Assembly (NCBI GenBank): GCA_963678065.2
Contig: CAXXVZ010000003.1
Span: 2,304,001 to 2,368,000 of the forward strand
Length of the DNA: 64,000 nt
Origin: Treponemataceae bacterium
GTDB taxonomy: Bacteria; Spirochaetota; Spirochaetia; Treponematales; Rectinemataceae
Direction: 5' to 3'
The translations under genes were made by a program, and so were the position numbers. The notes beneath the pieces are model-generated. The model was not told the DNA's origin, did no database searches, and saw nothing but the letters and a program-made list of their open reading frames with translations. Positions 36,590 through 57,509 of the stretch are shown here, in pieces; position 1 is the stretch's first letter; each line of letters opens with the position of its first letter.

Positions 36590-36639
36590 AAACTATGGGC
36601 GGTGCAAGAGTCGAACTTGCGACCCCCAGCGTGTCATAC
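36590..36639 (-). repeat. att direct repeat: duplicated 3' end of tRNA-Val
   Basis: 50 bp identical to 43406-43455. Confidence 0.95.
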
Positions 36640-37041
36640 GAGAGGAACGGCATTAGCCCGCGTTAACGCACTTAATCACGCGATGCATAAAACGTGATGA
36701 GGGAAGAACTAAGCTTCACCTGACTACTAGCCCAGTTTATCGCGGTTTAGTGCGCTTTGCAAGAGCGGGCGGTAACGTGGCGAGTGTCAACGGAAAATGA
36801 GACTACCACTAGCATTAGCTGGGGGTTATGTTTTGAGCATATAAAGCTCCCAGTTTTGACCGCCTCACAGAAGCCCCTTTTATAGAAGGCCTTTGAATAA
36901 TCGACGCGCAAGGGGTGTTATAGTATGCGACCCCTTTGGTTAATCGTTTTGAAAACACCCTAAATGGTAGCTTTTAATATTGCCATGTTGACTTTCTAAG
37001 ATACCTATGATATCTTTTCCCATTGACAAGAAGGGGGGAAT

Positions 37042-37557
37042 ATGGCAGGAAATATGCAGATAGGTATTAGGGTGTCGGAAGAAGAAAAAAAGGCCTTTGA
37101 TGTTATTGCAGATAAGCCCCTTGTAAAAAGCAATCGGGGCCTATTCCGCCAGTTTTTAGCAGTTTACCTTCCTTTCGGATCGTATGCCCTTCACCTAAAA
37201 GCCGCTGATCTTTCCGCCGAGATCGCATACCGGGAAAAAAAGGCCGAAGCCATAGCCGCCGAAAAGGCATCCGCATCTGAGGAAAAAGCCTATGAGCTAG
37301 AATTGGAAGCGGCCGCAAATACTGTCTTCCTGGGAAATGCTCGAATCGACGCCGAGATCGTGGTGAAAATGCTTGACCTCATCGCGAACACGATCGAGGA
37401 GGTTAGGAAGTCCCCCCTTGATATTCCTAATAATCGACAAGGTGTTAACCGCTTTGCTGAAAGCATGATACGCACCTACCGACTCAATACTGACCCTTGC
37501 TATCGGCGGAACATGGAAATCAATAGCCTAGTGCCGAAAGAGGACACGGACGAATAA
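37042..37557 (+). CDS. Hypothetical protein, possible ribbon-helix-helix N-terminus
   Basis: QIGIRVSEEEKKAFD strand-helix pattern; GGGGG RBS. Confidence 0.55.
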   Translation: MAGNMQIGIRVSEEEKKAFDVIADKPLVKSNRGLFRQFLAVYLPFGSYALHLKAADLSAEIAYREKKAEAIAAEKASASEEKAYELELEAAANTVFLGNARIDAEIVVKMLDLIANTIEEVRKSPLDIPNNRQGVNRFAESMIRTYRLNTDPCYRRNMEINSLVPKEDTDE

Positions 37558-37576
37558 GGAAACGGAGCAAAATGGC

Positions 37577-37861
37577 ATGAACGGGATCGCGCAAGAGCTT
37601 ATTATACAAAAAGATACATCGGATTCCGGGCAGAAAAAAATCCCCCGGATTCGCGGTCTCACCTCCCTTTCAGCGATACGGAAAGAGATTGTCAAAGTGT
37701 ATTGCGAAGCGAAGGCCGCCGGGGCAATCCCTGACAAGATTACTTTCTACCGTGGTTTGACCTACATTCTCTCGGCGGCCGCCCAGGTCAAGAAAGACGA
37801 ATCACTAGACCTCATAGAAGAGCGGCTAGAGAGACTTGAGGAGGCAAGGGGAAATGAATAG
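37577..37861 (+). CDS. Small helical protein, candidate packaging (small terminase-like) factor
   Basis: GGAG RBS; LTSLSAIRKEIVKVY...IEERLERLE coiled-coil end; function inferred from position. Confidence 0.5.
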   Translation: MNGIAQELIIQKDTSDSGQKKIPRIRGLTSLSAIRKEIVKVYCEAKAAGAIPDKITFYRGLTYILSAAAQVKKDESLDLIEERLERLEEARGNE

Positions 37862-38030
37862 AGCAATAATCGCCCGCGTTAACGCACTCGAAACGCGCAA
37901 TCGTCGCCTTGCTATTTTCCTTATCGATGAAGTGAAGCTCGGCCATGAAGCAGCAAGGGCGGAGATAGAGAAGATAGAGGTGGATTCAGAACGGCACGGG
38001 ATTGAGCCAATCTGTATCGTATTTGACTAA
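37854..38030 (+). CDS. Small hypothetical protein
   Basis: Overlaps the upstream stop (translational coupling); MNRAIIARVNALE. Confidence 0.55.
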   Translation: MNRAIIARVNALETRNRRLAIFLIDEVKLGHEAARAEIEKIEVDSERHGIEPICIVFD

Positions 38031-38170
38031 CGGCCCGGCCTTATCCGGGAAGGGCTCGGCCTTTTAATCCGAAGTAAGTGGCGCGCGCGGCCTTAATCCG
38101 CACGCTAACGGCCCGGCGAATCCGAGGTAAAGTGGCTCGGCCTTATTCCGAGGAAAAGCGGCTCCTTACG
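38031..38170 (+). repeat. Array of five GGCYCGGCCTTAATCCG-like units upstream of the capsid gene
   Basis: Direct reading; a homologous array lies on the minus strand at 41823-41915. Confidence 0.85.
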
Positions 38171-38200
38171 GGGAAGCATCCAACGAAATGAGGTGAAGTC

Positions 38201-39046
38201 ATGGCTCTTTCAGCCGCCACTATTCCCGTCCAAGTATCCCGCATGATTCTTGAGACTCTCAAGGAAATTCTTGTATACGCGAAGCTTTTCAATCAAGACT
38301 ACCAGGGGGAAGTATCCTTCGGCTCTGATTTGAAAATCCCTTCTATCGGAGCTGTAACGATCGAGGATTATGAACGGTATACCGACCTGACCGGCCAAAA
38401 CGCGGCCGACTCGTCCGTTACCCTGGCAATCAATAAACAGAAAGCTTTCGAGATTGTTCTGGACGATATCGACGAGGTACAGGCCGTCCCGAACATTCTT
38501 TCGGCCTATCTTGTGGATGCCGTCTTCGGCCTACAGAAAAAGATTGATACCGACCTGGCCACTGAGCTGGCAAGCGCGGGAACCCTCGTGACCGGTTTCG
38601 GGACTTCTACCACGCCGATTGAAGTCAACTCGGCCAACATCTGTACGCAACTCCGAGCGATGGCTATGGCTATGGACAACGCCCTAGTTCCGCGCATGGA
38701 TCGGGCTATCATCCTTCCGCCCTGGGCGATTGAGAAGCTCACCCTTGCTTCCATCGTCAACGCCACGGATAACACGGACGCGATGGCTAACGGCATCGTA
38801 GGCAAGTACGCGGGATTCAATATCTACATGAGCCCGCTTGTCCCTAACACGGCTTCGGCGAAGTATCGCATTCTCGCCGGTTCTCCCCGTTCCGCTACCT
38901 ATGCGGTTCAGATCGAGAAGACCGAGAAGCTTCGGCACCCTAAGCAGTTCGCGGACATCCTGCGCGGCCTTTGCGTGTACGGCGCGAAGACTACCAGGCC
39001 GGGTACTGTCATCAACGGCTATTGGAACCTCGCCGCCGAGGCGTAA
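38201..39046 (+). CDS. Phage major capsid protein (HK97 fold, P22-coat-like group)
   Basis: LV..KLFNQDYQGEV..G..LKIP.IG.VTI.DY, LAINKQK.F...DDID..Q, G.VG.YAGF.IY.S, F.D..RGL.VYGAK; GAGGTG RBS. Confidence 0.85.
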   Translation: MALSAATIPVQVSRMILETLKEILVYAKLFNQDYQGEVSFGSDLKIPSIGAVTIEDYERYTDLTGQNAADSSVTLAINKQKAFEIVLDDIDEVQAVPNILSAYLVDAVFGLQKKIDTDLATELASAGTLVTGFGTSTTPIEVNSANICTQLRAMAMAMDNALVPRMDRAIILPPWAIEKLTLASIVNATDNTDAMANGIVGKYAGFNIYMSPLVPNTASAKYRILAGSPRSATYAVQIEKTEKLRHPKQFADILRGLCVYGAKTTRPGTVINGYWNLAAEA

Positions 39047-39127
39047 CTAGACCCTAGTCCGGCCGCCGTTGGCGATAACCGGCTTAGATAGCGCTTGTGT
39101 GGCCATGGGCGCGCGTTCATTCGGTCT

Positions 39128-39160
39128 GCCCTCCCTGAGCAAAACGGGGAGGGCCTTTTT
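39128..39160 (+). terminator. Rho-independent terminator after the capsid gene
   Basis: GCCCTCCC...GGGAGGGC hairpin followed by TTTTT. Confidence 0.7.
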
Positions 39161-39261
39161 ATCGTTTACACCCCAAAATGTATCCATAAAGGTAACGCGA
39201 AAAATGAGCCCGCTGTAAGTCGCCCCCCTCTATCGAATTACAACGGGCTACCACTTGCCTA

Positions 39262-39573
39262 TTATGCTGAGAGCTTAGGATTCCATGGAGATTGTAGGCC
39301 CATTTCGTTAATGAGTAGCCCTTCACTGGGCGAGAGGTCGCCTTCCTCCGCGTCGTATGTTTTCAAGAGTAAGTCCCCGGCAAGCGCGAAAGCTTCCAGT
39401 TGGTCGCCAAGTAAGGCTATACGCGGATCGTCAACGAAAAGCTCGGCCGAGAGAACACGCGCCTCATTTCGCCGCGCCCGAATCCAGGAAACAAGCCCGG
39501 CCCTGTCGCCCCCGAAAAAGTCTGTTGCCCCTGCCATAATCTCCACGAATGTTTTCAGCTGTCGAATATCCAT
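39262..39573 (-). CDS. Hypothetical protein
   Basis: GGAGGA RBS before MDIRQL; follows the replication gene. Confidence 0.55.
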   Translation of the reverse strand: MDIRQLKTFVEIMAGATDFFGGDRAGLVSWIRARRNEARVLSAELFVDDPRIALLGDQLEAFALAGDLLLKTYDAEEGDLSPSEGLLINEMGLQSPWNPKLSA

Positions 39574-39637
39574 GTTCTTTTCCTCCCAAATAATCGGCCC
39601 CGAGGGCAGAGCCACAAGGCCACGCCCCCGGTAGCCC

Positions 39638-41152
39638 TTACCAGATTTCCAGTTCGTCATCGGCCTTGACGGGTAGCACTTCGCATCTGCTACCGCTACT
39701 TTCTGCTTCCTTGCTTATATCTTTATCAGGTATAACGTTAGGCTCGAATAGGGAGCGGGTAGCAGTTGATTCCAGGTAGCGCGCGAATATTTCCTTGAAG
39801 TCTTCCACGCGGTAAGCCCGCGCGTTCCGCCCCGCCGTCTTCATTTGAACAGATTGAATCCCGAACGGCTTCAAGTACCGTGCAAGGTTGTTTTTAGAGA
39901 ATCCCTTTCCCCCGGCGAATCCAGGCCACGGATGATCTTCAAGTGAAAGTAGATACTCTACAACCTCTTCAGAAGTGAATGCGGTTTTATAGGTAGCCGA
40001 GGAAAAGAGCGCTCGGAGGTCGCGGAGTAGTAGCGTCCTCACGTCGTCGTCGTCGCTATCAGATTGTGCGCATACCGCTATAGCTGCCTCTCGGGCTATC
40101 CTTGACCACTCTCCCCCAGCTACGTCTGCAATACGCAAAAGCTCGCGCCATGCGTCCGCTTGCCTGTCGTTCAATTCAATGGGTATTTGAGGGTCAATGG
40201 CAGCTATCTTTTTTTGACTATCCGTCGTCCATCTAACGATACGACGACGAAGCTCTTCAAAGCCTTGGTCTTGATCGGCGCGAAGGCGTTCGACCGTTTC
40301 CTCTCCCTTTTTCCGCTTCATCGGGATGAGGAGTGCCCTATCGGCCAGCGTTGACGGAAGATGTCCTATAAGCCCGAGAGCCTTCGGGCACCACGTCGAA
40401 AAAATACGCGGTTCTTGATCTTCGCCTGAGCATCGAATGGCATAGGCCGCCGTCCGTGAAAAACTCGCGTTGACAAGTGTCCTTAGGTCTTCATTTTCCT
40501 TGAAGATCGAATCCGCTTCGTCAAGAACAAGAGTAGGCCTAAACTTTTCAACTACCCTAAAGAGTGCAGCGCTTGTAATCGTAGAAGCAGGAAGGGCTTT
40601 CAAGGCAAGGCGTGATACTACTTCAAGAGCTGTTGTCTTTCCGCATCTTTTAGTTGCCGAGAAGAAAACCAAAAGAGGCAAACAAGCGGCATGATCGACT
40701 AGGTAGGACAAGGTAAGCCATAGAGCCATCGATTCAACCGCGTACGGAGGCGCTATCAGGAAGCGCCGAATCTGTTCGACCAATGAATCTAGAAGAGTTG
40801 CGCCATCTACGCGGCTAGGCCATGCCTCAGGCGCTTCTAGCGCGATTTCACGGCCCTGTGTCACCTTCTCGGGTTTCGCTTCCCGACGGATTCGATCGAG
40901 AAAAGACGGGCGGACTACATACTCTTTCGCTAGGGCCTTCCGCTGCGTCTCGTATTCCTCATCGCTCAAGGAAATAATTTTTTCACGAAGCCCGGAAGTA
41001 TCTGCTACCTCGCTACCATTTGCACCTATCTCGTCTTCCGATCTGCAATTAGGTTCGGTAACATTCGGTAGCGGTAACGGATTCAATCTGCTACCCGGTA
41101 TCGGGGCGAGTAAATCGGCGGCGCCGGGGGAAGGTAAGTCTTTATTTCCCAT
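39638..41152 (-). CDS. DUF3631-type P-loop replication protein
   Basis: P.PWP..VDG..LL, K.CGKTT Walker A, PTLVLDEAD, FSTWCPKA, L.DR..D.W..L..IA..AGG.W, LARYLKPFGI. Confidence 0.8.
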   Translation of the reverse strand: MGNKDLPSPGAADLLAPIPGSRLNPLPLPNVTEPNCRSEDEIGANGSEVADTSGLREKIISLSDEEYETQRKALAKEYVVRPSFLDRIRREAKPEKVTQGREIALEAPEAWPSRVDGATLLDSLVEQIRRFLIAPPYAVESMALWLTLSYLVDHAACLPLLVFFSATKRCGKTTALEVVSRLALKALPASTITSAALFRVVEKFRPTLVLDEADSIFKENEDLRTLVNASFSRTAAYAIRCSGEDQEPRIFSTWCPKALGLIGHLPSTLADRALLIPMKRKKGEETVERLRADQDQGFEELRRRIVRWTTDSQKKIAAIDPQIPIELNDRQADAWRELLRIADVAGGEWSRIAREAAIAVCAQSDSDDDDVRTLLLRDLRALFSSATYKTAFTSEEVVEYLLSLEDHPWPGFAGGKGFSKNNLARYLKPFGIQSVQMKTAGRNARAYRVEDFKEIFARYLESTATRSLFEPNVIPDKDISKEAESSGSRCEVLPVKADDELEIW

Positions 41153-41423
41153 AGACGTACCCCCGGTATGCCCTCAGCCCAGGAAGCAAGTGGCGCTTGC
41201 CCTTTCCCTCTCGTATGATTGAGAGAACCCAGTTTTCCCATTCGGACTCGGCTATGTCGGCGAGGTAATAGGCAAGTTGGTCACGGCTTATCGTCGGGCA
41301 AAGTAAGAAGGATTCTTCCCTAACTAGGAACAATTCGTCATGCCTGTTCAACCCTATTTTTGTCCGTGGGGTTGAGAGAACGCGACGTATCGCGGCCATG
41401 TTCGGCGTTTCAGCGGTGCTCAT
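41142..41423 (-). CDS. Hypothetical protein
   Basis: Overlaps both neighbours in an operon. Confidence 0.55.
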   Translation of the reverse strand: MSTAETPNMAAIRRVLSTPRTKIGLNRHDELFLVREESFLLCPTISRDQLAYYLADIAESEWENWVLSIIREGKGKRHLLPGLRAYRGYVYGK

Positions 41424-41602
41424 TTTGCACCTGCCTTGCGCTGTACTGACGCGGACACGTCTACGCGCGATATTTCCCCTTGGTGGAAAATCAAGGTAAT
41501 ACCAGCGCTTCCAAATTGAGGGGCGTTTCCTAAAAGCTCTTTCAGGTAAGGGGCGGCAACTTCAAAAAGCTCGGCCGCTCGGGTGCTGTTCGCGGCGGCC
41601 AT
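41420..41602 (-). CDS. Small hypothetical protein
   Basis: GAGGTG RBS; FGSAGITLIFHQGEISRVD pattern. Confidence 0.55.
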   Translation of the reverse strand: MAAANSTRAAELFEVAAPYLKELLGNAPQFGSAGITLIFHQGEISRVDVSASVQRKAGAK

Positions 41603-41603
41603 G

Positions 41604-41786
41604 CTAGCGCACCTCGCCCGCGAGAGCCTGAGCAAGTAGGGAGTCAATCGCACTTACAGGAACAAGACGCCTTCCACCAAGGCGAAGCGAGGGGAGCTTA
41701 CCAGATTCGCACCAGCGATAGGCAGTAATTTCGTGAATTCCAAGGATAGTCGCAACTTCCGCGACTGATAAGAATTTCTTTTCCAT
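41604..41786 (-). CDS. Excisionase-like HTH DNA-binding protein
   Basis: FLSVAEVATILGIH..T.YRW...GKLP..RLGGR.LVP. Confidence 0.85.
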   Translation of the reverse strand: MEKKFLSVAEVATILGIHEITAYRWCESGKLPSLRLGGRRLVPVSAIDSLLAQALAGEVR

Positions 41787-41822
41787 AGCGTTTACCCGTG
41801 CAAGTAGGCTTAGCGCGCCCAT

Positions 41823-41915
41823 AAGAGCGGCTTTCCCCCGGATTAGGCCGGGCCACTTGCAAGCGGATTAGGGCCGCTAGCGCCACCTACCCCGGATTAA
41901 GGCCGGGCCACTTCT
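41823..41915 (-). repeat. Array of three GGCCCGGCCTTAATCCG-like units upstream of the xis/replication operon
   Basis: Same unit types and same 3' tail (GGAAAGC.GCTC.TTA) as 38031-38170. Confidence 0.85.
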
Positions 41916-42123
41916 TAACGATATTATAGTTTTGCTATCATTCTAATTATATTTGCTACCTTTTTAGAATATACTCTCTTTAGTTAATATTAGCAAGTGT
42001 ATATCCCTAAAAATGGAGCTGAGGTAACACGCAAGGTATTCACTCCCGGCCCCTCCGTCCTAACTCACGCCCCGCCGTGGTTTATCACGTGGATACCCTC
42101 CGCCTTATACGCGGGAGGTATAG

Positions 42124-43302
42124 TCATTTCCCGCCCCCGGCCGCCTTCGCAATACTTCCAGACAGCGCGCCATCGAATGCTATACCGGCCGCGCCGATGT
42201 CTATAATCTCAGAATGCGCCGAATAGCGTTGCATCATCGCGCCGGTTCTATGGCCCGCCAAGCGTTGAATGGTAAAATCGTTTAGCCCAGCGACACGCCC
42301 GGCAGTCACGAAAAAGTGACGTAGCCCGTGCATGAGGAGATTCCTTTCTTTGCGTTCGCTTTCATCGATACCGATTTTTTCAAGGATACGCTTGAATCCG
42401 CGTTCGATTGTCTTTTTCTCTATTGGTCGCTCGGGATTCTTTTCACCGAATAGGACATAGCCGGCACCGGCGGGCGCACAAGCCCGGCAGAGCTTAACGG
42501 CTTCAAGAACGGGCGCGGAAAGCGGAACGTCTCGCTTGGAACCGCATTTCGGACTCTTGCATCCTTCGCCATCGATCCAGTTATGAACGATATGAACAAG
42601 CCCGGCCGCTTCGTCAACGTCGGCCCATTGGAGCCCGCGCGCTTCGCCCAACCTGAGCCCGCATAGCCCGCCCAATAATACGGCCGCCTTGGCTCGGGGC
42701 GACTCGCCTTCAAGATTGACGATTCGGCCCATTTCATCGAGCGAGAGTACCCCGCGTTCGCGCGGATGCTCGGCGACTTTCTCAAGGTACTGGAATGGGT
42801 CTAGCGCCCGGTGTTTCCTTGCCCAGGATGAGGCGGGAACCTTTATAGCTTGTAGCATATAGTTAATCGTTCGAGGATTGACGCCGGATTCCGCAAGGTC
42901 GAGGACGATCTTTTCCATGCGCGTTATGCTCAGTTTATGAAAGCGAATATCCTTGAGGGGTTGGCTAAGGTATTTTCTGATTACGGACGCATTATTCGCG
43001 ATATAGGCCCTTGAGAGCGGCCGCCCTTGAAGTTTTCGCATTCGCGCATAGTCGCTATCTTCGCGCCAGAATCCAAGGAAGAAATCCAGGGCTAGAGGAT
43101 CGGCGGACGCGCCGCCCTCTCCTTTGTCCAAGAGGGCCTTCGCCTCCCCTGCGGCGGCGGTTCGATTCGTTGCCTTGAGTGTCTTCGTCCGAACGACTTC
43201 GCCATCGTCGGAAAAGTACCGGGCGCAGTAGCGAATGACCGGCTTCCCGGTAACACGATCCCTTGAATTGCGCTTAAAAACAGAAAACGGAGCGCGCGCC
43301 AT
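42124..43302 (-). CDS. Tyrosine integrase
   Basis: GLRLGE.RGL.W, KSPK, HGLRH, LAGH, RY catalytic residues; next to the tRNA att. Confidence 0.93.
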   Translation of the reverse strand: MARAPFSVFKRNSRDRVTGKPVIRYCARYFSDDGEVVRTKTLKATNRTAAAGEAKALLDKGEGGASADPLALDFFLGFWREDSDYARMRKLQGRPLSRAYIANNASVIRKYLSQPLKDIRFHKLSITRMEKIVLDLAESGVNPRTINYMLQAIKVPASSWARKHRALDPFQYLEKVAEHPRERGVLSLDEMGRIVNLEGESPRAKAAVLLGGLCGLRLGEARGLQWADVDEAAGLVHIVHNWIDGEGCKSPKCGSKRDVPLSAPVLEAVKLCRACAPAGAGYVLFGEKNPERPIEKKTIERGFKRILEKIGIDESERKERNLLMHGLRHFFVTAGRVAGLNDFTIQRLAGHRTGAMMQRYSAHSEIIDIGAAGIAFDGALSGSIAKAAGGGK

Positions 43303-43411
43303 AGAGTCCCCTTTTACCGCGTGTATCAAACACGGTAACTTGAGCTTTGGCGGTCTCCGTTTTCGGTTGACCGAATGTCCTAATTCCTTTCGCTTCTAAC
43401 ACTTAAAACTA

Positions 43412-43485
43412 TGGGCGGTGCAAGAGTCGAACTTGCGACCCCCAGCGTGTCATACTGGTGCTCTAACCAACTGAGCTAACCGCCC
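43412..43485 (-). tRNA. tRNA-Val(GAC)
   Basis: GGGCGGTTAGCTCAGTTGGTTAGAGCACCAGTATGACACGCTGGGGGTCGCAAGTTCGACTCTTGCACCGCCCA. Confidence 0.95.
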
Positions 43486-43700
43486 ATTCACATCACCGCC
43501 AGATTTCCTGACGCGGACACAAAGACTGTATATCAAACTCCGCCTTACCCTGTCAATACTCCCCCGGAATTCCCACCTTGTTCATGCACATCGATAAAAT
43601 GAACGAACCCCGGAGCAGAGTTACTATGTAGAAAGAGTGTCGGTCCTTTGGGCCGGATATAATCCGTAGTGGGAAAACAACCACAAAGGAGGCGACACTC

Positions 43701-44643
43701 ATGACGATTGTATGCGGTATCGACGCGCACGACGGTGATCGTCGGTTACGAGGCCTGCGGGCTTGGGTACACGATCTACGACGAAGCGATGGATGAAGGA
43801 TTTACCTGCTACGTCCTGGCTACGGTCAAAATGGCTAAATCGCCTGAGGACGGAAAGCGAAAGACGGACGAGTATGACGCGCAGAAAATTAGCGAGGTTC
43901 TGCGGGCTCATGAGTTGGCAGGGATGACAGTGCCGACAGTATGGGTACCGAGCAAGGCTCTGCGAGACGATAGAGAATTGATCAGGAGGCGGTTTGATGT
44001 GAAGAGCGACTCGACGCGGATCAAGAACCAGATACATGGCCTCTTAAAACGACAGGTCATCAAGTGTCCTGAAGGGCTCGGGAATCCTTGGACGAAGAGC
44101 TTCATGGCCTGGCTCAAGGCGCTCGAGTTGCCATCGGGAGCACTCGTCCACCTACGAAGCTTGATCCATCAATATGAATCGCTGAATGAGAACATCAAGG
44201 CTTTGGATAAGGCAGCCGAGGCCTTGTCGAAAACAGAACGGTATAGACGGCAGGTCGATGCGGTGACGGAAATACAGGGCGTCGGAACGCTTACCGCTAT
44301 GGTGTATCTCACCGAACTTGGCGATCTAACTCGGTTTCCGAATCGAAGGACGGTCAAGGCATATGTGGGACTCGCGCCAACGAGCCACGAGAGCGGAGAG
44401 ATCAAGGATCGTAAGGGTCATATCATGCGCTCAGGTTCAAGCCGATTGCGCGCGATCTTAAACCAGGCGGTTTGGGCACGACTTGCGCATGATGCTGAAG
44501 AACTCAAATGGTTCGAAGGCTATGTCGCCACTCATTCGGGGGGAAAGCGTAAGGCTGCCGTGGTCTGCATGTCGAGACTCTTACACCTGATCTGGCATCG
44601 AGCCCTCGAGGCTCAGCGCGAATACGAACGGGAGGTCGCCTAG
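43701..44643 (+). pseudogene. IS110 transposase with an N-terminal deletion and frameshift
   Basis: AGGAGG then MTIVCGIDAH, then a frame switch straight to VGYEACGLGY; KTDEYDA, IQGVG, YVGLAP..HESG, G.SRLR. Confidence 0.8.
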
Positions 44644-45109: not shown

Positions 45110-45643
45110 ATGAGAAAAGTAGGTTTGTTGGTTCTCTTGGTTGCGGCCATCGCTGTCATCCCGGTTGCGGCGACTCCAGTCAAAACAGCATCTGCGACGA
45201 TCAAGCTCTATGGCAGTGTTTATTACAGTGCTATAGTTTACTCTGATTGGGCCGAGACAACTCTCATCGATCTTACCAAAGCAGAGGATGAGTTGAAGGT
45301 TACTGGCATTGGTGTGACCACAAATTTCCCGGGAACGTGGTATCTTTGGATGAAATCTACGAGCGCCCAGGAAGGATCTTTGGTTAAATCTGGTTCGGCA
45401 CCATCTCTGACTACCGCAATTCCTTATACAGTAAGCATCGGTGATGTGACTTACAAGTCTTTGGCGCCGTGGGGTGGTGGTTATGATTCTTCATTTGGAT
45501 ACAAGGTCTTGACCCACACTGGATCAGTCACTGATACGGTTTACAACATGTTCGTCACACATACTTCTGGTTCTGCTGGCAATATTCTGGAAGAAGGAAC
45601 CTACAGAGACAACGTAGTTGTTACTCTTGCGCTCGGCTCCTGA
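45110..45643 (+). CDS. Fimbrial major subunit (Csu/spore-coat-U-like)
   Basis: Signal peptide, beta-rich, IPYTV and G.Y.D.V.VT C-terminal motif; first gene of a chaperone-usher operon. Confidence 0.7.
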   Translation: MRKVGLLVLLVAAIAVIPVAATPVKTASATIKLYGSVYYSAIVYSDWAETTLIDLTKAEDELKVTGIGVTTNFPGTWYLWMKSTSAQEGSLVKSGSAPSLTTAIPYTVSIGDVTYKSLAPWGGGYDSSFGYKVLTHTGSVTDTVYNMFVTHTSGSAGNILEEGTYRDNVVVTLALGS

Positions 45644-45659
45644 GTAACCGTAATTTGTA

Positions 45660-45693
45660 AAAGGCAACCGTGTAATGCGGTTGCCTTTTTTTT
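45660..45693 (+). terminator. Terminator/attenuator after the pilin gene
   Basis: AAGGCAACCG-tgtaatg-CGGTTGCCTT followed by a poly-T run. Confidence 0.8.
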
Positions 45694-45767
45694 ATCAGTC
45701 GCCGGTTCTATTGACTCGCGGGCGGGGATATGTAGAATTTAATAAATGCCTAACCAGGGGGATACCA

Positions 45768-46502
45768 ATGCGCATATCAACAAAATGTCTGTTTTCACTT
45801 TTTTTTATGATAAGTACATCGATGCTTGCGTCCGCATTCTCAATTACCCCGATGAGTATAACGGTGACGCCGACAGCTCCCGGAAATTTGGCAAATTTCA
45901 AAATCGAGAATGAATCGACCGCCCCTATCGCTGTCGTTATCAGGGTGGCAACAAGAACAGTCGATGTGGACGGAAATGAAAAAAATGATCCTGTGACCAA
46001 AGAATTTGTTGTATTCCCCGCAAGAGTGGTCGTCCAACCAAATTCTTCGCAGGCGGTCAAAGTACAATGGAAAGGTCCGGCGACTATTCCCTCCGAGCTC
46101 GCATACAGGCTGGTCGCGGAGCAAGTTCCTGTGGACTTTACCAAAGACCAGACATCTGGGGTCAAGGTCTTGTTCCGGTATCTCGCCACGATGTACGTAG
46201 CGCCGAGCGGTATTGTCGCGCGCACCAAGCTTGAGAGCGTGACGGGATCTATGCGGAACGGGAATCCTGGATTGCTGGTGAGGATCAAAAATGATGGAAC
46301 CCGGCATGGACTTCTTTTCTCGCCCATTCTCAGGATCAAGGCGCCGGGGCAGAACCAGCAGCTTGAATTCGCGGGCAAATTACTGGAATCAATCGAGGGA
46401 ATGAACATACTCGCGCTTTCGACGCGGATTTTTTTCGTGCCTTGGGCCCAGGCCGTCGACGGAACTCAATATGAGGGCACATTCAGTGCCTCGATTGAAT
46501 AA
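45768..46502 (+). CDS. Fimbrial periplasmic chaperone (PapD-like)
   Basis: FSITP, FVVFPAR..V.P...Q.V, E.AYRL..EQVP, IKNDG.RH. Confidence 0.85.
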   Translation: MRISTKCLFSLFFMISTSMLASAFSITPMSITVTPTAPGNLANFKIENESTAPIAVVIRVATRTVDVDGNEKNDPVTKEFVVFPARVVVQPNSSQAVKVQWKGPATIPSELAYRLVAEQVPVDFTKDQTSGVKVLFRYLATMYVAPSGIVARTKLESVTGSMRNGNPGLLVRIKNDGTRHGLLFSPILRIKAPGQNQQLEFAGKLLESIEGMNILALSTRIFFVPWAQAVDGTQYEGTFSASIE

Positions 46503-46509
46503 GAGGTTT

Positions 46510-48957
46510 ATGCCGGCAAGGCTGAATTCTTTCAAAACATTTGTACTTATTCTGGCCTTCTTTGTAGTTTCAGTCTTCTCCGGTTTTTCCGATGAACTCC
46601 TCCAGAAAAAACTGACGGGCGAGATTGATCCTGCCCCCGAAGAACTGGGGCTTGTGACCCTCGTGGTCGACGGGGCGACTGTCGGAGATATCGAGGTTAT
46701 ATTTACAGAGAACAAGTACTTCCTTTCGCTGCAAAAACTCGATTCCATCCTTGTGGATTACATGGCTCCCGGATTCCACAGCGAGGTTTTCCGGACAAAA
46801 CTCAAGGCATATCGGTGGGTCGGAAGCGCAGAATTGAGCGCGGCGGGACTCTCGGTAATGGAAGATTCCAATTCCTTAAGTTTTTTTCTGGTTGTTCCGC
46901 CTTCCAAACGCCCCGTAAACGATATCAGGATTTCTCAGACCACATACAACAGCATCAAACCGATCCTCCTGCCTTCACCATTCTCCGCGATTCTGAACAC
47001 CGAACTGCAGGCCGGCCTGGACTTCTCTGTTTCGGGATCTTATGTCCCGATATCCTGGCTCTTTGACCTTTCCCTGAACATTTCAGACTGGGTACTCGAA
47101 GCAAATGGCCGTGTATCGTTTTATCGGGATCTGACGGCCGCATTGCAAATGCTTCGCTTTGTACGCGACATCGGTCCTCTGGGGGCGCGGCTCTATGGAG
47201 GAATGGTTACTTCCACTTCGTTGGGATATCAGCAATCGTCCAGTCTCTACGGTCTCACACTCGACAGCTACAATTTCGTGCCAGGAAGGCGGCCCGCCAA
47301 CGCGCCTGTTTCCCAGTTTGTGCTTGAAAAAAAATCCATCGTCAGGATTATCCTCAATGGAACTATCCTCCTCACTCTCGACCTCGACCCGGGAACCTAC
47401 GATGTCGGACAATTCGACTTTGCTCCCGGCATCAATGACTTCGTAATAGAGATAGAAACGCCTGGGGAAAAAAAACAACGCATCCATGCGGTCGTCTCGA
47501 GGGAGGACGTGCTTCTCGGAAAAGATATGGTCGAGTTCTCAGCATCTGCGGGGGTCGGAAGAACCAATCTCGGGGAAATATTCGGCTCGACCTTTTACCG
47601 CAGAGGCTTGGCGGATGTCTTAACCGCCGGAGGGGCCATCCAATTCGGAAAATACTCAGGGTTGGCAGGAATTACCGCCGTCTATGCGAGCCCCATCGGA
47701 GCTATCACCCTCAACGCGGCGAACATGCTCGCCTGGGATGGTCGTCTGGCCCAGGCCGCAAACTTGAAGTACAAACTCACATTTCCCGGTCGTTCGAGCG
47801 CGCCATCATTTGGCCTCGATTTCGAGATCCGGACCAAGGATTTCGAGGCTCCACGAATCGGGACCCTTCCAACCTACCCCGAGGGCACTTTCTCAGTCAC
47901 GGCCCAGGCTTCCGGCCGTCTTTCCTCGGATTCTTTTATCGGAATATCAGGAACTTACTCCCGCCAGTACACTGGTACAGTACAGGACACAGTATCGTCC
48001 AGCCTCTCCTTCAGCACGAATCTTCGTCCAGGGTACTCTCTCCTCTTGTCTGGAGGTACCAGTCAAACTTTAGGTGAAGCGCTTACGGCGACAGCCAGCA
48101 TCCGCCTCAGTATCAATCCCCAGGGCGGAAACCAGCTTTTCAACTTTACCCAATCGTTGAACGGAGAAAATTCAGTCAGTATCGCCAATACTGGCGCAGA
48201 GAACGGAATCGTGGCATCCTTCCAAGGAGACAATCTCCTGGGAACTAGCGCCAATCCAGCTAATGTCACAATAAGCGCACGGAAGACTACCGCGCTGGCA
48301 GATTTTGCAGGAAACCTGGATCTCCAGTACGGAAATGCCGAAGTTCTGGGGCTCTCGACTCAGGCAACTCTGTCCGCATCGACCGGTTTCGTATTCGTCA
48401 ACGGAACCTTCGGCATGGCGAGGAGAATCTCTGATTCCTTCATGATTTTCGCCCCGCCGCAGACCCTCAGCCGCGAGAGGATCGATGTCAGGAACGATTC
48501 CGGACAGACCGGCTCCAGCATTGGCGGCTCCGTCGTCGTACTGCCTCTGACCTCCTATCGTTCGGGATTGGTCAGCCTCAACCTGCCCGAGTCAGACCCC
48601 AATATTGTCCTGAAAACAACGACGGCGACCGTGTCGCCGCGATACAAGTCCGGCATTTTCTTTACCACGGACATCGTCCGGAGCCATGCCATTTCGGCCA
48701 CCCTCGTCGACAAGGCAGGAGCCCCTCTCGGCTACATCATGGCGGAGGTTTTCAACGAGATGGGCGAATCTGTCTCGTCGACTTTCACCGACGAGAACGG
48801 CTATTTTGAGTTGTATGACCTGTTGGGCGGCATCTACACCATACGCTGGCCTCTGGACCTGGGGGTCACCTATTTCGAAATTCCGGAGGACTCTCCCAAG
48901 GATCTGACCTTGGGTACGATATCGCCTTCAGTTCCCGGGCAAGAAGGACCGCAATGA
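46510..48957 (+). CDS. Fimbrial outer-membrane usher
   Basis: ~815 aa, beta-rich; L.PG.Y...F...PG.N, YRRGL...LT.G; C-terminal FTDENG.F. Confidence 0.8.
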   Translation: MPARLNSFKTFVLILAFFVVSVFSGFSDELLQKKLTGEIDPAPEELGLVTLVVDGATVGDIEVIFTENKYFLSLQKLDSILVDYMAPGFHSEVFRTKLKAYRWVGSAELSAAGLSVMEDSNSLSFFLVVPPSKRPVNDIRISQTTYNSIKPILLPSPFSAILNTELQAGLDFSVSGSYVPISWLFDLSLNISDWVLEANGRVSFYRDLTAALQMLRFVRDIGPLGARLYGGMVTSTSLGYQQSSSLYGLTLDSYNFVPGRRPANAPVSQFVLEKKSIVRIILNGTILLTLDLDPGTYDVGQFDFAPGINDFVIEIETPGEKKQRIHAVVSREDVLLGKDMVEFSASAGVGRTNLGEIFGSTFYRRGLADVLTAGGAIQFGKYSGLAGITAVYASPIGAITLNAANMLAWDGRLAQAANLKYKLTFPGRSSAPSFGLDFEIRTKDFEAPRIGTLPTYPEGTFSVTAQASGRLSSDSFIGISGTYSRQYTGTVQDTVSSSLSFSTNLRPGYSLLLSGGTSQTLGEALTATASIRLSINPQGGNQLFNFTQSLNGENSVSIANTGAENGIVASFQGDNLLGTSANPANVTISARKTTALADFAGNLDLQYGNAEVLGLSTQATLSASTGFVFVNGTFGMARRISDSFMIFAPPQTLSRERIDVRNDSGQTGSSIGGSVVVLPLTSYRSGLVSLNLPESDPNIVLKTTTATVSPRYKSGIFFTTDIVRSHAISATLVDKAGAPLGYIMAEVFNEMGESVSSTFTDENGYFELYDLLGGIYTIRWPLDLGVTYFEIPEDSPKDLTLGTISPSVPGQEGPQ

Positions 48958-49886
48958 AAAAGAAGTTGCTTGTTATGCTTCTCATCTTCCTCGCTATCCT
49001 CACGGCGCAGGCTCAGACAATATCGTACACATCCCTGACATCGTATATTTCCGGTGATTATGATTTTTATTCCGAAGCGCCGCTTCCGGTTGAGGCGAAG
49101 ATCAGCATAACCGGCATGAAAAGTTCGACCTATCCATACTATCTCACGGTGGAGCCGGCAATCGGCGCCCGATATCTTTCCAGGTTCGGGAGCGGCTACT
49201 ATTTGCCGTATACGGTGTACACGACGCCCTCCGCTCCGCGCAACGAGCTCTACGACTATGCGGGTGCCTCGAGCACTTCGCAGGTGATCACGGGAGAGTT
49301 CTCGAAAGCGGCTTACGGGGGGTCTTCATCAGCCTCGGACTACAATGACATGTATTTCGTCGCGACGCCCGGAACGCTAGTCCCCGCGGGAATTTACTCG
49401 GGCACATTCTCGGTTCGGCTCTACAGGAAGGCGTTCAAGAATGCCACCACGCCGCTGACAAAATCCGTTCAGGTGTACATGAATGTTCCCATTTACACTG
49501 AACTCAGTGTGGTGCCCACGGGCGGGATATTCGACTCCGCGGCAAAATCGGCATCAATGAACTTCGGAGAGATGGTCGAAGGCGCCTCGCTCAGCCTCGA
49601 CGTGCTGGCAAAATCGAACGCCAGCTACTCCATAGCGATCACCTCGACCAAGGGAGGAAAGCTCACGCAGAATCCGGACACGGGCCAGTACGTTCCGTAC
49701 ACGCTAAAATTCGCGGGAGCCGCTCTCGCTTTGAAACAGGGAGTGGCCGTGCCCGCCGTGAGCTATGCCGCCTGGACATCCGGCAACGTCGCGCGGTACA
49801 CGCTGGAAGTCATCATAGGGACTCACGATATTCTGGATCAGGGCTACTATTCGGACAACCTCATGTTCACCATCAGCGGGAACTGA
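48954..49886 (+). CDS. Fimbrial tip/minor subunit (two pilin-like domains)
   Basis: Signal peptide; AGIYSGT and GYYSDNL motifs closing each domain. Confidence 0.7.
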   Translation: MKKKLLVMLLIFLAILTAQAQTISYTSLTSYISGDYDFYSEAPLPVEAKISITGMKSSTYPYYLTVEPAIGARYLSRFGSGYYLPYTVYTTPSAPRNELYDYAGASSTSQVITGEFSKAAYGGSSSASDYNDMYFVATPGTLVPAGIYSGTFSVRLYRKAFKNATTPLTKSVQVYMNVPIYTELSVVPTGGIFDSAAKSASMNFGEMVEGASLSLDVLAKSNASYSIAITSTKGGKLTQNPDTGQYVPYTLKFAGAALALKQGVAVPAVSYAAWTSGNVARYTLEVIIGTHDILDQGYYSDNLMFTISGN

Positions 49887-52961: not shown

Positions 52962-53078
52962 GAAACCCGCCTCTGTGCTCGAAGTGTCTTATTACACTTC
53001 ATACTACAGTAATACAAGGTTTACACTCGCCGGTTTTCCGGGAGAAATGTAATTCATTCTCTTAAAAGACTTTATTCT

Positions 53079-53120
53079 TGAGCCGCACAAGATTCGAACT
53101 TGTGACCCACGCCTTAAAAG
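53079..53120 (-). repeat. att remnant: 3' half of tRNA-Lys(TTT)
   Basis: Minus strand CTTTTAAGGCGTGGGTCACAAGTTCGAATCTTGTGCGGCTCA has the anticodon loop, T arm and acceptor 3' strand; no 5' half. Confidence 0.8.
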
Positions 53121-53262
53121 AACATATTTTATCACATCACGGTGTATCTTTATGTACTATGTTAACTACTAATTCTTTATCTGTCAATGCAAATCGTTTC
53201 ACAACGTGTCAAGCAGTACTACCCTATATAGCGATTTATCTCATAGTTTTATCTCATACTAC

Positions 53263-53587
53263 TTATTCCGTATTTGTGTGTGACATTTCTGCCAGGAGCT
53301 GCTTTACTCGTTCGATTGGGAGAGGAGCTGAGCCTTCAAAATGGTTGTTGACGTTCAGATAGACTTGCTTACCATGGTTCGAAAGCTCGTTGATCATGAC
53401 AGCGATAGAAGGCAGTTGCGATTTGGGCTCGACAATCCGGTTCCATTCTTGCTGTGTGGCTTTCTCGATTTCCATCCGATCACCCCCGAGGAGCCGGATG
53501 ACAACAAGACTGGATAACAGGTGACCGAACTTCCTGTATAAATCGACGATGTGTGGCATGTACTGTTTTTCTGAAAAGACCATCAAG
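53263..53587 (-). pseudogene. DUF72 protein C-terminal remnant
   Basis: IRLLG, VYLNVNNHFEGSAP; 5' part replaced by IS3 DNA. Confidence 0.6.
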
Positions 53588-54115
53588 TGGACTTGCCCGG
53601 GTTTCGTGGAGGCTTGGTTAAGCCACTCTCCTGAGCATCGCTGCGGGTGGCCTGAAGCCGTTTCGTGAGTGGATCCGAAGCCGATTGTAATACACCTCGA
53701 TGTACTCGAACACTGCGGTCCTGACCTTCTTCCGGGTGGTTTTTCCGTCAAGCTCGGGGAGTTCCCTTTTCAGCGTCTTGAAAAAGGACTCCGCGCAGGT
53801 GTTGTCCCCAGCAGTTCCCCTTGCGGCTCATGCTCCTTACGAGTATCGGCATCGTCCCTAGGGAAGCCTCTCGAAAAGCATTGCAGCATTATTGGATGCC
53901 GGGGTCGGAATGGAACAACAGCGGGCCTTTGGGATTCTTCCTGTACACAGCCATCGCGAAGGCATCGATGACAATGGCCGCAGTCATGTCGGTCCTCATG
54001 GACCAGCCCACGACCATCCGTCAAACAGGTCTATGCCCACGCACAGGTAGAGCCAGCCATCGGTGGTCGGGATATACATTATGTCCAACACCCACACCGT
54101 AGTGGGCTCGGCGAC
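53588..54115 (-). mobile_element. Degenerate IS3-family transposase remnant
   Basis: LFHSD.GIQ, GNCWG, ESFFKTLK.E, FEYIEVYYNRLRIHS with frameshifts. Confidence 0.75.
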
Positions 54116-54284
54116 GTCAAGGTATCATATCAAATGACTACATAGTATTTTCTACAGATATACTACGCACCCGTAAATAAATATTTTCATCGTTGACTTT
54201 TGATGAATACTCTGCAAATCATCTTATACGGATCAAGATAAATGCTGTTCGGCGGACGCTCTGCGCAGGGAAGGAAACGAATAA

Positions 54285-54740
54285 ATGAGAGATAAACGAT
54301 TTATAGCAAATCATATGGGCGGTCCATTAAGTTTAGAAAGACATAGGTCATTGATTCATTGGGCTGTTGACTGTGTAAAACATGGAATTGAAATAGCAAA
54401 TGAAAAGGATATTGACGAAAGAGCATTAAATGCTCTGGAAATTGCTGAAAAATGGGAAAAAGGAAATGCTACTGTTGGAGAAGCAAGAGAAGCAGCATTT
54501 GCAGCACATGATGCCGCAAGAGAATGTGAAGATAAGATTAAACAAGCATTAATGCGTGCCTGTGGTCATGCGGTAGCAACAGCTCATATGGCTGATCACT
54601 CATTGCAAGCCAGAAAATATGTATTAAAAGCAGTAAAGCTAACGAATAGGGAAATAGCAAAAGAAATGGAATGGCAAATACAAAGAGCAGATGTAAATAT
54701 TAAAGAATTACTTATAGGAAATGGAAATGAATTATGCTAA
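54285..54740 (+). CDS. Imm5-like putative immunity protein, cassette copy 1
   Basis: WA.DC..H, D.R...A...A..W..G...VGEAR.AA..AH.AAR, RA.GHAVATAHM..H. Confidence 0.7.
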   Translation: MRDKRFIANHMGGPLSLERHRSLIHWAVDCVKHGIEIANEKDIDERALNALEIAEKWEKGNATVGEAREAAFAAHDAARECEDKIKQALMRACGHAVATAHMADHSLQARKYVLKAVKLTNREIAKEMEWQIQRADVNIKELLIGNGNELC

Positions 54741-54750
54741 AGAAGAAGAC

Positions 54751-54877
54751 GCCGAACAATCGCTTCAACCGGACAGCGCCTTTTGTCACGGTTTGTGCTA
54801 CTCGCTTCGCTCGCTTGTGCACAAACCGCGCCAACCCGCTTCGCGGGACAGGCTTGCCGGTTAAGCCAATGTTGCAC
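54751..54877 (+). repeat. attC site 1
   Basis: GCCGAAC...GTT, imperfect palindrome (CTTCAACCGG / CCGGTTAAG with an extra base, GGTTTGTGC / GCACAAACC). Confidence 0.88.
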
Positions 54878-54988
54878 TAAACCGCTGTGCCAGCGGTGGA
54901 GGATTTGCTTTCATTCCTACCTTTTGCGAGGTTCGGGCACATTCATAGACCACGGATACTTCTGGCATCATCACGCCGGAGGTATCCA

Positions 54989-55870
54989 ATGCACTACGAA
55001 CTCGAACTCGAAGCCATGCGCAAAGCGCTGGTCATCCGCAACTACGCCACCAAGACCATCAGCACCTATGTCTCCGTCCTCAAGCGGTACCTTGAACAGC
55101 TTGACAAGCCGATCGCCTGTGTCACATCGGCCGACATCCAGGAGTGGCAGTATCATCTCGTCAATGAAGAAAAAGTATCTTGGTCTCTCTTCAACCAGAT
55201 GGTCTGCGCCCTCAGGTTCTATTTCAAGAACGTGCGCACCTGCGATTTCACGGTCAAACACATTCCGTTCCAGCGCAGACGAAGGCGATTTCCGTCCATA
55301 CTGTCCAAAGAAGAGGTAGCAGCTCTTCTGGAAACCGCGCGGCTGAATCCCAAGCACTATGCGATCATCGCCACGCTGTACTCCACCGGCCTGCGCCTTG
55401 GCGAATTGGTCAAGCTCCAGATACCCGACATCGACAGTACGATGATGCTCGTGCACGTCCGGCAAGGCAAAGGTGGCAAGGATCGGCATGTCCAGCTCAG
55501 TTCCCACCTCCTCGGGATATTGCGGGCCTATTATCGCTCGTGCCTCGTCAAGCCGAAAACCTGGCTCTTCCCGGGTGCCAAGAACGATGGCCCGCTGGAT
55601 CCGAGTGGTATCCAGAGGATGGTTCCCGCTATCGCACGAAAAGCCGGAATCGAGAAGCATATCTCGCCGCACACGCTCCGGCATTGCTTCGCAACCCACC
55701 TGCTCGAAGACCACACCGACCTGCGCACCATCCAGTCCATGCTCGGTCACAGCTCCATCCAGACGACGGAAGTGTACCTGCACGTGGCGACGCATCATCT
55801 CCAGAGTGTCCGCAACCCCCTCGACCATCTCCCGGCACCAGGTGTGCACTCCGCGGGAAAGCCCCGATGA
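54989..55870 (+). CDS. XerD/integron-related tyrosine recombinase
   Basis: RNYA.KT..TY N-terminal domain, YSTGLRLGE, GKGGKDR, HTLRHCFATHLLE, LGHSSIQTT..Y; GGAGG RBS. Confidence 0.92.
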   Translation: MHYELELEAMRKALVIRNYATKTISTYVSVLKRYLEQLDKPIACVTSADIQEWQYHLVNEEKVSWSLFNQMVCALRFYFKNVRTCDFTVKHIPFQRRRRRFPSILSKEEVAALLETARLNPKHYAIIATLYSTGLRLGELVKLQIPDIDSTMMLVHVRQGKGGKDRHVQLSSHLLGILRAYYRSCLVKPKTWLFPGAKNDGPLDPSGIQRMVPAIARKAGIEKHISPHTLRHCFATHLLEDHTDLRTIQSMLGHSSIQTTEVYLHVATHHLQSVRNPLDHLPAPGVHSAGKPR

Positions 55871-57075: not shown

Positions 57076-57368
57076 ACGAGGGGTGTGACTCCTGAGTCCG
57101 AATTTCACCGAACATCCGCCCATTGTGCCTGTATTCCCTTCATCCCCTCACAATTCCCGGCAGGTAAAAACTGCTCTGAATACGGCATTGCCCATGATCA
57201 CGCTTACGGATAAAAATCGTACTGCCGTGTACATGCCCGTTAATAAAAAAAATCGTCCCGTTACGCGCGTCTCCTCTCATTTCCCGCCTTGTAGTACCGA
57301 GAAACCCCGGATTGTTCTTCAATTTGATGTGAAGACTTGATACAGTACCCATAGGGGACGACGGTTCA

Positions 57369-57478
57369 GTGCAACACGTTCTATCCTGCAGAATCGAATT
57401 CTCGGTGTGCCACCCTCCTTCAGTACATCGAGAGTCGGTTGTCGCGCGATTCCGCAGGATAGAATGCTAATGTTCGGC
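57369..57478 (+). repeat. attC-like hairpin at the right end of the recombinase/IS91 element
   Basis: GTGCAAC...TTCTATCCTGCAGAATCG / CGATTCCGCAGGATAGAA...GTT; sequence unrelated to attC1-3. Confidence 0.7.
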
Positions 57479-57509
57479 GGACGCTCTGCGCAGGGAAGGA
57501 AACGAATAA

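Follow-up and report, generated by a model that had tools for sequence, protein, structure and literature searches.

A compact integrated element with a lone major capsid gene, probably a phage satellite, in a Treponemataceae bacterium

The stretch of 64,000 nucleotides analyzed here, called the window below, comes from a Treponemataceae bacterium (GenBank assembly GCA_963678065.2, contig CAXXVZ010000003.1, positions 2,304,001 to 2,368,000) and carries at 36590-43455 a small element integrated at a tRNA-Val gene. The element encodes an integrase, a replication protein and a 281-aa major capsid protein (MCP). It is real, intact and apparently mobile. It is very probably a functional satellite-type element rather than a prophage remnant, because the MCP has the HK97 fold, its gene bears the marks of purifying selection and the same layout recurs in complete elements elsewhere. 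An earlier note on this DNA had proposed a capsid-only satellite. The satellite part of that proposal stands for these same reasons, while "capsid-only" describes just one state of a series.

The MCP (38201-39046) was matched by profile to phrog_267 (E 6e-51) and P22_CoatProtein (E 3e-8), with Pfam matches limited to P22_CoatProtein and Phage_capsid_2, and it aligns with the Che8 capsid of PDB 8e16 at E 5e-23. The HK97 fold, for which the earlier note had proposed an AlphaFold check, is borne out by the model (pLDDT 80.5), whose top fold matches are all HK97-fold shells, led by 8e16 (E 9e-16, TM 0.64). Encapsulins reach TM 0.5-0.63 in this search, near the phage coats, and the encapsulin Pfam domain found no match in the MCP. 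The alignment with the Che8 coat begins at residue 8, and the model opens with one short helix and has no N-terminal delta domain. Nonsynonymous and synonymous divergence (dN and dS) were 0.105 and 1.75 between the window MCP and that of locus L006, and 0.27 and 1.74 against that of L005. The resulting dN/dS ratios of about 0.06 and 0.15, which are rough because synonymous sites are close to saturation, indicate that the gene is under purifying selection.

A protein search with the MCP returned 29 matches among 1,556 candidates, namely the query, 27 proteins of 51-81% identity over nearly the full length and one of 26%. Locus searches returned 17 metagenome, 66 genome and 60 viral loci. Only one of the genome loci exceeds 50% identity to the window MCP (L021, in an Alkalispirochaeta metagenome-assembled genome, MAG), none of the 60 viral loci lies above 38%, and the closest annotated phage MCP is 33% identical (best of 389 matches). 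The related phage MCPs lie behind separate scaffold, portal and large terminase (TerL) genes. Specifically, six of the eight viral loci sampled have a portal match, four of these also TerL, and five have a scaffold match. Where checked, the viral neighbors of the MCP are, by their genes, ordinary phages.

Besides the window element (6,816 bp), six complete MCP-bearing relatives were found, at differing attachment (att) sites:

L005: 5,947 bp, att-bounded at tRNA-Lys; MCP
L021: 8,450 bp, att-bounded at tRNA-Arg; MCP and scaffold
L018: 8,815 bp, att-bounded at tRNA-Leu; MCP, scaffold and decoration-like phrog_24894
L207: 7,726 bp, att-bounded at tRNA-Gly; MCP and scaffold-like gene
L208: 7,583 bp, att-bounded at tRNA-Lys; MCP and scaffold-like gene
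L015/L017: about 6,993 bp, circular (terminal overlaps); MCP, scaffold-like gene, ParA and XerD

Portal, TerL and tail families found no match in these seven elements, in a scan of 96 six-frame open reading frames (ORFs) of at least 110 aa (69 kept in six-frame form and 26 taken from start codons, with the L005 MCP left out). The complete elements of the family (n = 13) span 5.9-8.9 kb, with a median of 7.6 kb. Additionally, a search of 401 genomes of the order with phrog_267 gave matches in 18, and ten regions were examined. The three strongest non-self regions were the two att-bounded satellites L207 and L208 and a 3.7-kb remnant in another genome (L209) with DUF8136, scaffold and MCP genes; the weaker ones were six prophages or prophage fragments and one region at a contig end. 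The relatives that share the window layout are thus complete elements of 5.9-8.8 kb lacking portal, TerL and tail, and not the deleted prophages that the earlier note had named as the outcome that would undo its proposal. That note was also right about size, since 6.8 kb is below the 9.5-kb median of phage-inducible chromosomal islands (PICIs) (PMC10085698; here and below, statements on published systems refer to the portions of the cited texts that were available). The hosts of the family are probably spirochaetes, on the basis of one close relative, the Alkalispirochaeta MAG.

Some members carry further genes. A sigma-factor-like gene follows the MCP of one capsid-bearing relative (L207:9051-9551). 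A XerD-like recombinase lies near the MCP in L007, L004, L006 and L015-L017 (L004 and L006 were judged by eye on partial ORFs), and ParA occurs in L007 and L015-L017, which suggests that plasmid-state members exist. The metagenome fragment L011:2-2656 has TerL, scaffold, MCP and decoration-like genes in direct succession, without an intervening portal, and its MCP groups with those of the satellite loci L012 and L018.

The window element is bounded by an exact 50-nt direct repeat (36590-36639 and 43406-43455; spacing 6,816) that overlaps the 3' part of an intact tRNA-Val(gac) gene, as described in the earlier note. Its GC content is 52.7%, against 62.2% for the 5 kb on its left. The integrase lies at one end. 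The minus strand carries the integrase, an Xis-like helix-turn-helix (HTH) protein, two small ORFs, a 504-aa DUF3631 protein and a 103-aa ORF, and the plus strand carries ORFs of 171, 94 and 58 aa and the MCP gene, followed by a terminator-like hairpin. The probable start codons are at 43302 (int), 41786 (xis) and 37854 (58-aa ORF). The features are as follows:

36590..36639: distal att copy, duplicated 3' part of tRNA-Val; 50 bp, 100% identical to 43406-43455
37042..37557, plus strand: 171-aa ORF, putative regulator; 28% identical to the syntenic L005 ORF
37577..37861, plus strand: 94-aa helical-hairpin protein of DUF8136 (PF26457), a candidate packaging adaptor occupying the small-terminase slot
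37854..38030, plus strand: 58-aa ORF overlapping the DUF8136 stop; partner gene, with homologs following DUF8136 in L002 (52%) and L005 (29%)
38034..38153, plus strand: four copies of an inverted-repeat/hairpin motif, where relatives have a scaffold gene
38201..39046, plus strand: 281-aa MCP, HK97 fold, Che8/P22-coat type (phrog_267), no delta domain
39128..39164, plus strand: intrinsic-terminator-like hairpin 3' of the MCP gene; 10-bp stem, 8 G-C, T run
39208..42115: 2,908-bp core, 99.7% identical in a capsid-less sibling island at tRNA-Leu (G000:C3:1827708-1830615)
39262..39573, minus strand: 103-aa ORF (132 aa from an upstream ATG), no assigned function
39630..39780: GCTAC(C) repeat cluster, likely the iterons of an origin, at the 3' end of the replication gene
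39638..41152, minus strand: 504-aa DUF3631 (RepAM-type) replication protein, P-loop-like GKT motif; DUF3631 E 9e-42
41142..41423, minus strand: 93-aa ORF, no assigned function
41420..41602, minus strand: 60-aa ORF (77 aa from an upstream GTG); homologs after xis in related islands
41604..41786, minus strand: Xis-like HTH_17 protein; HTH_17 E 2e-14, phrog_66
41830..41910, minus strand: hairpin motif as at 38034..38153, in three copies, preceding xis
42124..43302, minus strand: intact tyrosine integrase, 392 aa; PF00589 E 1.5e-18, phrog_1 E 9e-41
43406..43455: att copy inside tRNA-Val
43411..43486, minus strand: tRNA-Val(gac), intact integration target

Pfam and PHROG scans matched the integrase, Xis-like HTH and DUF3631 replication protein reported by the earlier note, and none of the ORFs matched the portal, TerL, protease, scaffold or tail genes that it had found missing; holins and head-tail connectors were likewise unmatched. 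Its convergent operon of small ORFs ending in the MCP fared less well. The genes are there, and a 170-bp hairpin-bearing gap precedes the MCP gene, so a single operon is not shown. The integrase is 62% identical to that of the sibling and 60% to that of L018, and found no match in plasmids. Its R-H-x-x-R-H-Y motifs are present. The Xis-like protein matches HTH_17 strongly, with AlpA (E 0.0036) and MerR (E 0.028) both under the cut-off, and no repressor family matched between int and xis. Homologs of the 60-aa ORF are 29-37% identical in L171, L172, L174, L175 and L207. The 171-aa ORF has no significant Pfam or PHROG match; its N-terminus resembles the ribbon-helix-helix kind. It is preceded by a promoter-like site (36988-37016), the promoter count not being above that of shuffles. 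The same scans assign no function to the 103-aa and 93-aa ORFs, and the ESM Atlas placed the 58-aa ORF in unnamed clusters only.

No primase domain was found by these scans in the 504-aa protein, and relatives have a primase/helicase in the same slot. DUF3631 is the domain of the RepAM initiator of pMEA300 (PMC3218068). Unlike the RepAM-bearing actinomycete integrative and conjugative elements, the window element has no match to an FtsK/SpoIIIE transfer protein among its proteins. GCTAC(C) occurs in six copies within 200 bp near the 3' end of the DUF3631 gene. Clusters of at least five copies are found at only four places in the 5.27-Mb genome, two of which are this island and its sibling, and the cluster is likely to represent the iterons of a replication origin.

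The family appears modular, with members carrying scaffold and MCP (in some with decoration), MCP alone (window and L005) or no capsid gene. A scaffold-like gene, recognized by phrog_206 or by a profile built from five relatives, lies directly before the MCP in five of the six complete relatives, and also in the partial loci L007, L008/L010, L012 and L179. In the window and L005 it is replaced by a gap of 150-170 bp, and against the whole genome the five-relative profile matched only a distant prophage. Most complete MCP-bearing relatives thus retain the scaffold, and many relatives lack the capsid. Two MCP trees, of 106 and 52 rows, were inferred quickly with IQ-TREE (without bootstrap, near-duplicates at 90% and short or weak rows omitted). 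In both, a clade of 25 rows including the window has an SH-aLRT support of 99, and L021, L008 and L007 branch outside a group, supported at 96-97, that contains the window and L005. Because the scaffold-less pair is nested above these scaffold-bearing loci, scaffold loss looks derived in its lineage, a polarity drawn from two scaffold-less and three scaffold-bearing lineages with context known for 5 of the 25 rows. A sister-group position of L015/L016 (support 95 in one tree) was not recovered in the second tree and was dropped.

The 94-aa protein upstream belongs to DUF8136 (PF26457), a helical hairpin family with 1,207 clusters at 50% identity. It is present in 10 of 69 genomes of the bacterial family and 8 of 401 of the phylum. 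In the loci of the satellite family it follows a primase/helicase or similar gene within small integrase-bearing islands, a position that equals that of the small terminase gene (terS) in PICIs. Five complete DUF8136 islands had no match to either capsid query, of which L173-L176 are att-bounded and L177 is circular; four further stretches were cut or unbounded. Over 40 columns, the C-terminal helix of DUF8136 matches the tail of a DUF5681 protein (hhalign 92%, E 6e-7), and DUF5681 genes directly precede TerL in two prophages; PMC8954984 gives no function for DUF5681. Based on position and this alignment, DUF8136 is a candidate packaging adaptor similar to the small terminase (TerS). It could alternatively act as a CpmB- or Rcm-like scaffold mimic (PMC12409344). 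Structure searches with Foldseek against PDB and BFVD gave nothing at E<=0.001, the best VIA-align matches (Z 8.0) were generic helical hairpins with no TerS listed, and a PDB sequence search with 150 members gave nothing under E 0.36. A predicted four-copy complex scored 0.40, against a mark of 0.42. The ESM Atlas returned unnamed clusters only, with DUF8136 as lead at 0.86, and five query sequences found no DUF8136 in viral contigs.

The hairpin motif is a short inverted repeat with a stem ending in GG, a CCTT(T/A)AT-like loop and a stem starting with CC, and it stands four times before the MCP gene and three times before xis. These seven copies compare with 0.2 expected, an enrichment that is post hoc because the pattern was drawn from these sequences. 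The better evidence for the array comes from L005, where five copies occupy the matching two positions and the stems vary in a compensating manner. Clusters occur in the 5.27-Mb genome only in the two sibling islands. The motif was not found in the scaffold-bearing relatives scanned, and it has no Rfam match, no exact match in viral contigs and no cluster in the resident prophage. Three of four regions fold no better than shuffles (z 1.2 and 0.8 in the window). The placement suggests shared control of the excision and capsid genes, for which the array may act as a DNA operator or an RNA hairpin.

The sibling island (6.5 kb, at tRNA-Leu of the same genome) shares with the window element the 2,908 bp from xis to the 103-aa ORF at 99.7% identity. 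Its DUF8136/58-aa pair is 52% identical and in the opposite orientation, and in place of a capsid gene it carries a HigBA-like toxin-antitoxin pair and a DUF4468 lipoprotein. In contigs of run X1, which may be the source sample, depth is 51 over the shared core and 30 over the unique parts, so both copies are real. Modules have been exchanged recently between the two islands. In run X4, 44 of 3,553 letters in the host flanks and 6 of 6,594 in the element depart from the window sequence, and the element stands at about half the flank depth, a contig depth that is not a share of cells; one 5.8-kb contig joins capsid, core and integrase. This lower divergence and half depth fit recent transfer or patchy carriage, but a mixture of strains may also account for them.

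A resident prophage bears on the question of a helper. The single clear TerL of the genome lies in a 73-kb att-bounded island at tRNA-Gly (L147-L150, G000:C3:806147-879170), where about 12 kb of other genes separate the TerS-like, TerL and portal genes from the scaffold, a phrog_283 coat, an adaptor and the distal tail protein Dit. This prophage is probably defective. Its scaffold is homologous to those of the satellites (31% over 122 aa, E 1e-8), and a helper of this scaffold type therefore exists in the lineage. The island is riddled with insertion sequences (IS) and carries a methyltransferase/helicase block and two DNA polymerase genes. Its neck genes are followed almost immediately by Dit, and neither a major tail gene nor one for a tape measure lies in the interval; genome G450 (L214), whose coat is 68% identical, has the same gap.

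On balance, it seems probable, if only by a little, that the window element is a PICI-like satellite that builds its own small heads (about T=3) with the scaffold, portal, TerL and tail of a helper. Upon helper infection or induction, Int and Xis would excise a 6.8-kb circle, which the RepAM-type protein would replicate from the GCTACC cluster. The DUF8136/58-aa pair would then serve as a TerS-like adaptor steering the helper TerL. The MCP, whose expression the shared hairpin array probably ties to that of xis, would form a head too small for the helper genome, with scaffold, portal, large terminase and tail supplied by the helper. We infer helper dependence, excision, head size, the TerS role and the use of a helper scaffold. 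The scaffold and decoration genes of relatives indicate that the MCP belongs to a kit for shell building. Phage satellite P4 has 11.6 kb in a T=4 head; roughly scaled to T=3 this gives 7.5 kb, compared with the family median of 7.6 kb.

Several observations weigh against this reading. The link between DUF8136 and DUF5681 is a single coiled-coil helix, DUF8136 matches no TerS by fold or profile (including the two TerS-like proteins of the genome), only one of 150 members matches a TerS PHROG (E 0.007), and the genome of L021 has no DUF8136. Six complete relatives without a capsid match span the same size range, so size is independent of MCP carriage and the family can do without the capsid. The depth of the window element equals that of its flanks (30 against 28-33, run X1), that is, without amplification, and no excised circle was seen among the assembled contigs, which break inside the 50-bp att. 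The only source of portal and TerL found in the genome is the interrupted prophage, in which no tape-measure family matched and whose 381-aa MCP has no pairwise similarity to that of the window (BLAST E 0.77). The two precedents that have been tested also point elsewhere: Ccm is unable to substitute for the coat of its helper (PMC5052747), and the DNA of EcCICFT073 travels in full-size heads, its capsid gene not being needed for interference (PMC6092414).

The precedent of Ccm leads to a different explanation, in which the MCP makes no shell of its own and instead co-assembles with the helper coat, shrinking or jamming helper heads. The absence of a scaffold gene from the window element would fit this, as would SaPIbov5, where the capsid homolog Ccm forces small heads (PMC5052747), and PmCI172, which has an MCP homolog and small heads (PMC6092414). 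We regard it as unlikely, given that earlier-branching members of the clade retain the scaffold and the more distant L018 a decoration-like gene, that the window MCP lacks the delta domain through which Ccm is proposed to act, and that no phage coat was found closer than 33-41%, the resident prophage coat being dissimilar. The element might also ride in full-size helper heads, as EcCICFT073 does (PMC6092414) and in the manner of PICMI, with the capsid gene an exchangeable interference cassette without a packaging role. The sibling, in which a toxin-antitoxin pair and a lipoprotein stand in place of the capsid beside 2.9 kb of near-identical DNA, and the six complete capsid-less relatives speak for such a cassette. 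Full-length conservation of the MCP under strong purifying selection, the scaffold and MCP pairs of five complete relatives and the narrow size range make it improbable.

More improbable still is an autonomous shell without portal or tail, like an encapsulin or a "twilight" HK97 virus, that takes up the nucleic acid of the element as it assembles, possibly by way of the hairpins. The idea has been raised for 8.9-kb circles with integrase, Rep, scaffold and MCP (bioRxiv 2025.06.18.659913), and both the closeness of encapsulins to phage coats in the fold search and the hairpin arrays before xis and MCP agree with it. It conflicts with the unmatched encapsulin Pfam domain, with phage coats being the best matches, with the lack of cargo, lysis and entry genes among those found in the element, with capsid-free relatives on the same backbone and with hairpin regions that fold like shuffles. 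Finally, the capsid gene could have survived by chance in the deletion remnant of a full prophage. This genome does hold an IS-riddled prophage and a disrupted island, and L209 in another genome is a remnant of just this type. Nevertheless, perfect att sites, undamaged genes, the recurrence of the design in six independent complete elements, clade members of known context that never stand beside portal or TerL, and the low dN/dS of the MCP largely refute this explanation, which has very little probability left.

The favored reading, of small heads built with helper parts, can be extended to the whole family, as a tentative and somewhat doubtful combination. Satellites of 6-9 kb, probably of spirochaetes, would long ago have domesticated a P22/Che8-type coat and would build true T=3 tailed-phage heads. 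They would form a reduction series from scaffold, coat and decoration through scaffold and coat to coat alone, borrowing the helper scaffold, and finally no coat. DUF8136 would be an unrecognized small-terminase family, the hairpin arrays would link expression of the coat with excision, and the sibling without a capsid would be a satellite of a satellite, riding in the small heads of its neighbor.

Other islands lie in the same genome. One of 9.6 kb at tRNA-Thr with a 42-bp att (L151:2661-12258, G000:C3:1892661-1902258) encodes an integrase, a replication initiator, a DnaB-like helicase and a clear Terminase_2 small terminase, and by this gene content it is a more classical PICI-like element. 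From 53069 to 64000 and on to G000:C3:2383395, the window holds part of a 26-kb island (L152; tRNA-Lys, 52-bp att) with a split integrase, an initiator, DnaB, a reverse transcriptase and several IS elements. Just past tRNA-Val lies an IS110-family transposase (43708-44643), which is absent from one X4 contig and was therefore inserted recently. A low-GC locus at 45110-49883 resembles a chaperone-usher pilus locus (PapD_N chaperone and usher matches). In genome G370, the island L230:1-12334 has an integrase, a XerD-like recombinase and a 100-aa DUF5681 protein, with no capsid seen; its 848-aa ORF matches only a PHROG of unknown function and might be tape-measure-like.

The earlier note had treated a capsid gene without a portal as unusual, and in this it was mistaken. 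The capsid gene is one of the five core PICI components in SatelliteFinder (PMC10085698), and lone capsid homologs are known from SaPIbov5 (PMC5052747), PmCI172 and EcCICFT073 (PMC6092414). Since satellites with a capsid and no portal are already described, the window element is not a new category. Its closest likeness is to the capsid-bearing type A PICIs such as EcCICFT073 and PmCI172, which also have an integrase, a small HTH, a replication gene and a distal capsid gene, with no portal, tail or holin (PMC10085698, PMC6092414). It differs from them in its smaller size, RepAM/DUF3631 in place of a primase, the lack of a recognizable TerS and of a divergent repressor gene, and a P22/Che8-type coat. 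As judged from its genes, it would work like a capsid-bearing PICI. SaPIbov5 Ccm is likewise a lone HK97-fold capsid homolog in a satellite, but it has a delta domain and targets the coat of cos phages, while the window MCP comes from a scaffold-dependent family. The PICI-like tycheposons are small integrative elements with a tyrosine integrase, interchangeable replication modules and MCP or terS, and their capsid-bearing and capsid-less forms have modules in common (bioRxiv 2020.12.28.424599). Their description is from marine cyanobacteria, the likeness is one of gene content, and the available text of that paper shows no scaffold series.

The mini-genomes of Aguilar et al., gut circles of about 9 kb (8.9 kb) with integrase, Rep, scaffold and MCP, are explicitly without a portal and also lack terminase and tail (bioRxiv 2025.06.18.659913). 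They form a human-gut clade defined by encapsulin Pfam domains, in contrast to the P22_CoatProtein/Phage_capsid_2 of the window MCP, and have the scaffold beside the MCP, as in the five complete relatives but not the window element. The EPIPs of Mycolicibacterium are satellites listed with TerS, scaffold and MCP that were seen in heads smaller than those of the helper (PMC12822802), in whose available text the word "portal" is absent. Unlike the window element, they have a serine integrase together with a head-tail adaptor, a stopper and a tape measure. Capsid-forming PICIs (cf-PICIs) also encode a capsid, together with portal, TerL and head-tail connectors that the window element lacks (PMC10085698). 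Virion-encapsidated integrative mobilizable elements were dropped as a comparison, since they carry no capsid genes (PMC9618062). The suggestion that the family was undescribed in this lineage agrees with literature searches that found no report of it, the supplements of the SatelliteFinder and mini-genome papers, which could list such elements, lying outside their scope; "Spirochaet" is absent from the main text of the former (PMC10085698).

Of the lone PICI capsid genes that have been tested, Ccm shrinks helper heads and another showed no effect. The family described here offers a natural series, with scaffold, without scaffold and without capsid, of which two variants lie side by side in one genome. 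If closed T=3 heads are indeed formed, they would rank with the smallest head architectures of tailed phages and would bridge capsid-remodeling and capsid-forming PICIs. The same reading would give a function to DUF8136 and would extend satellites to a lineage from which the literature searches brought up no report.

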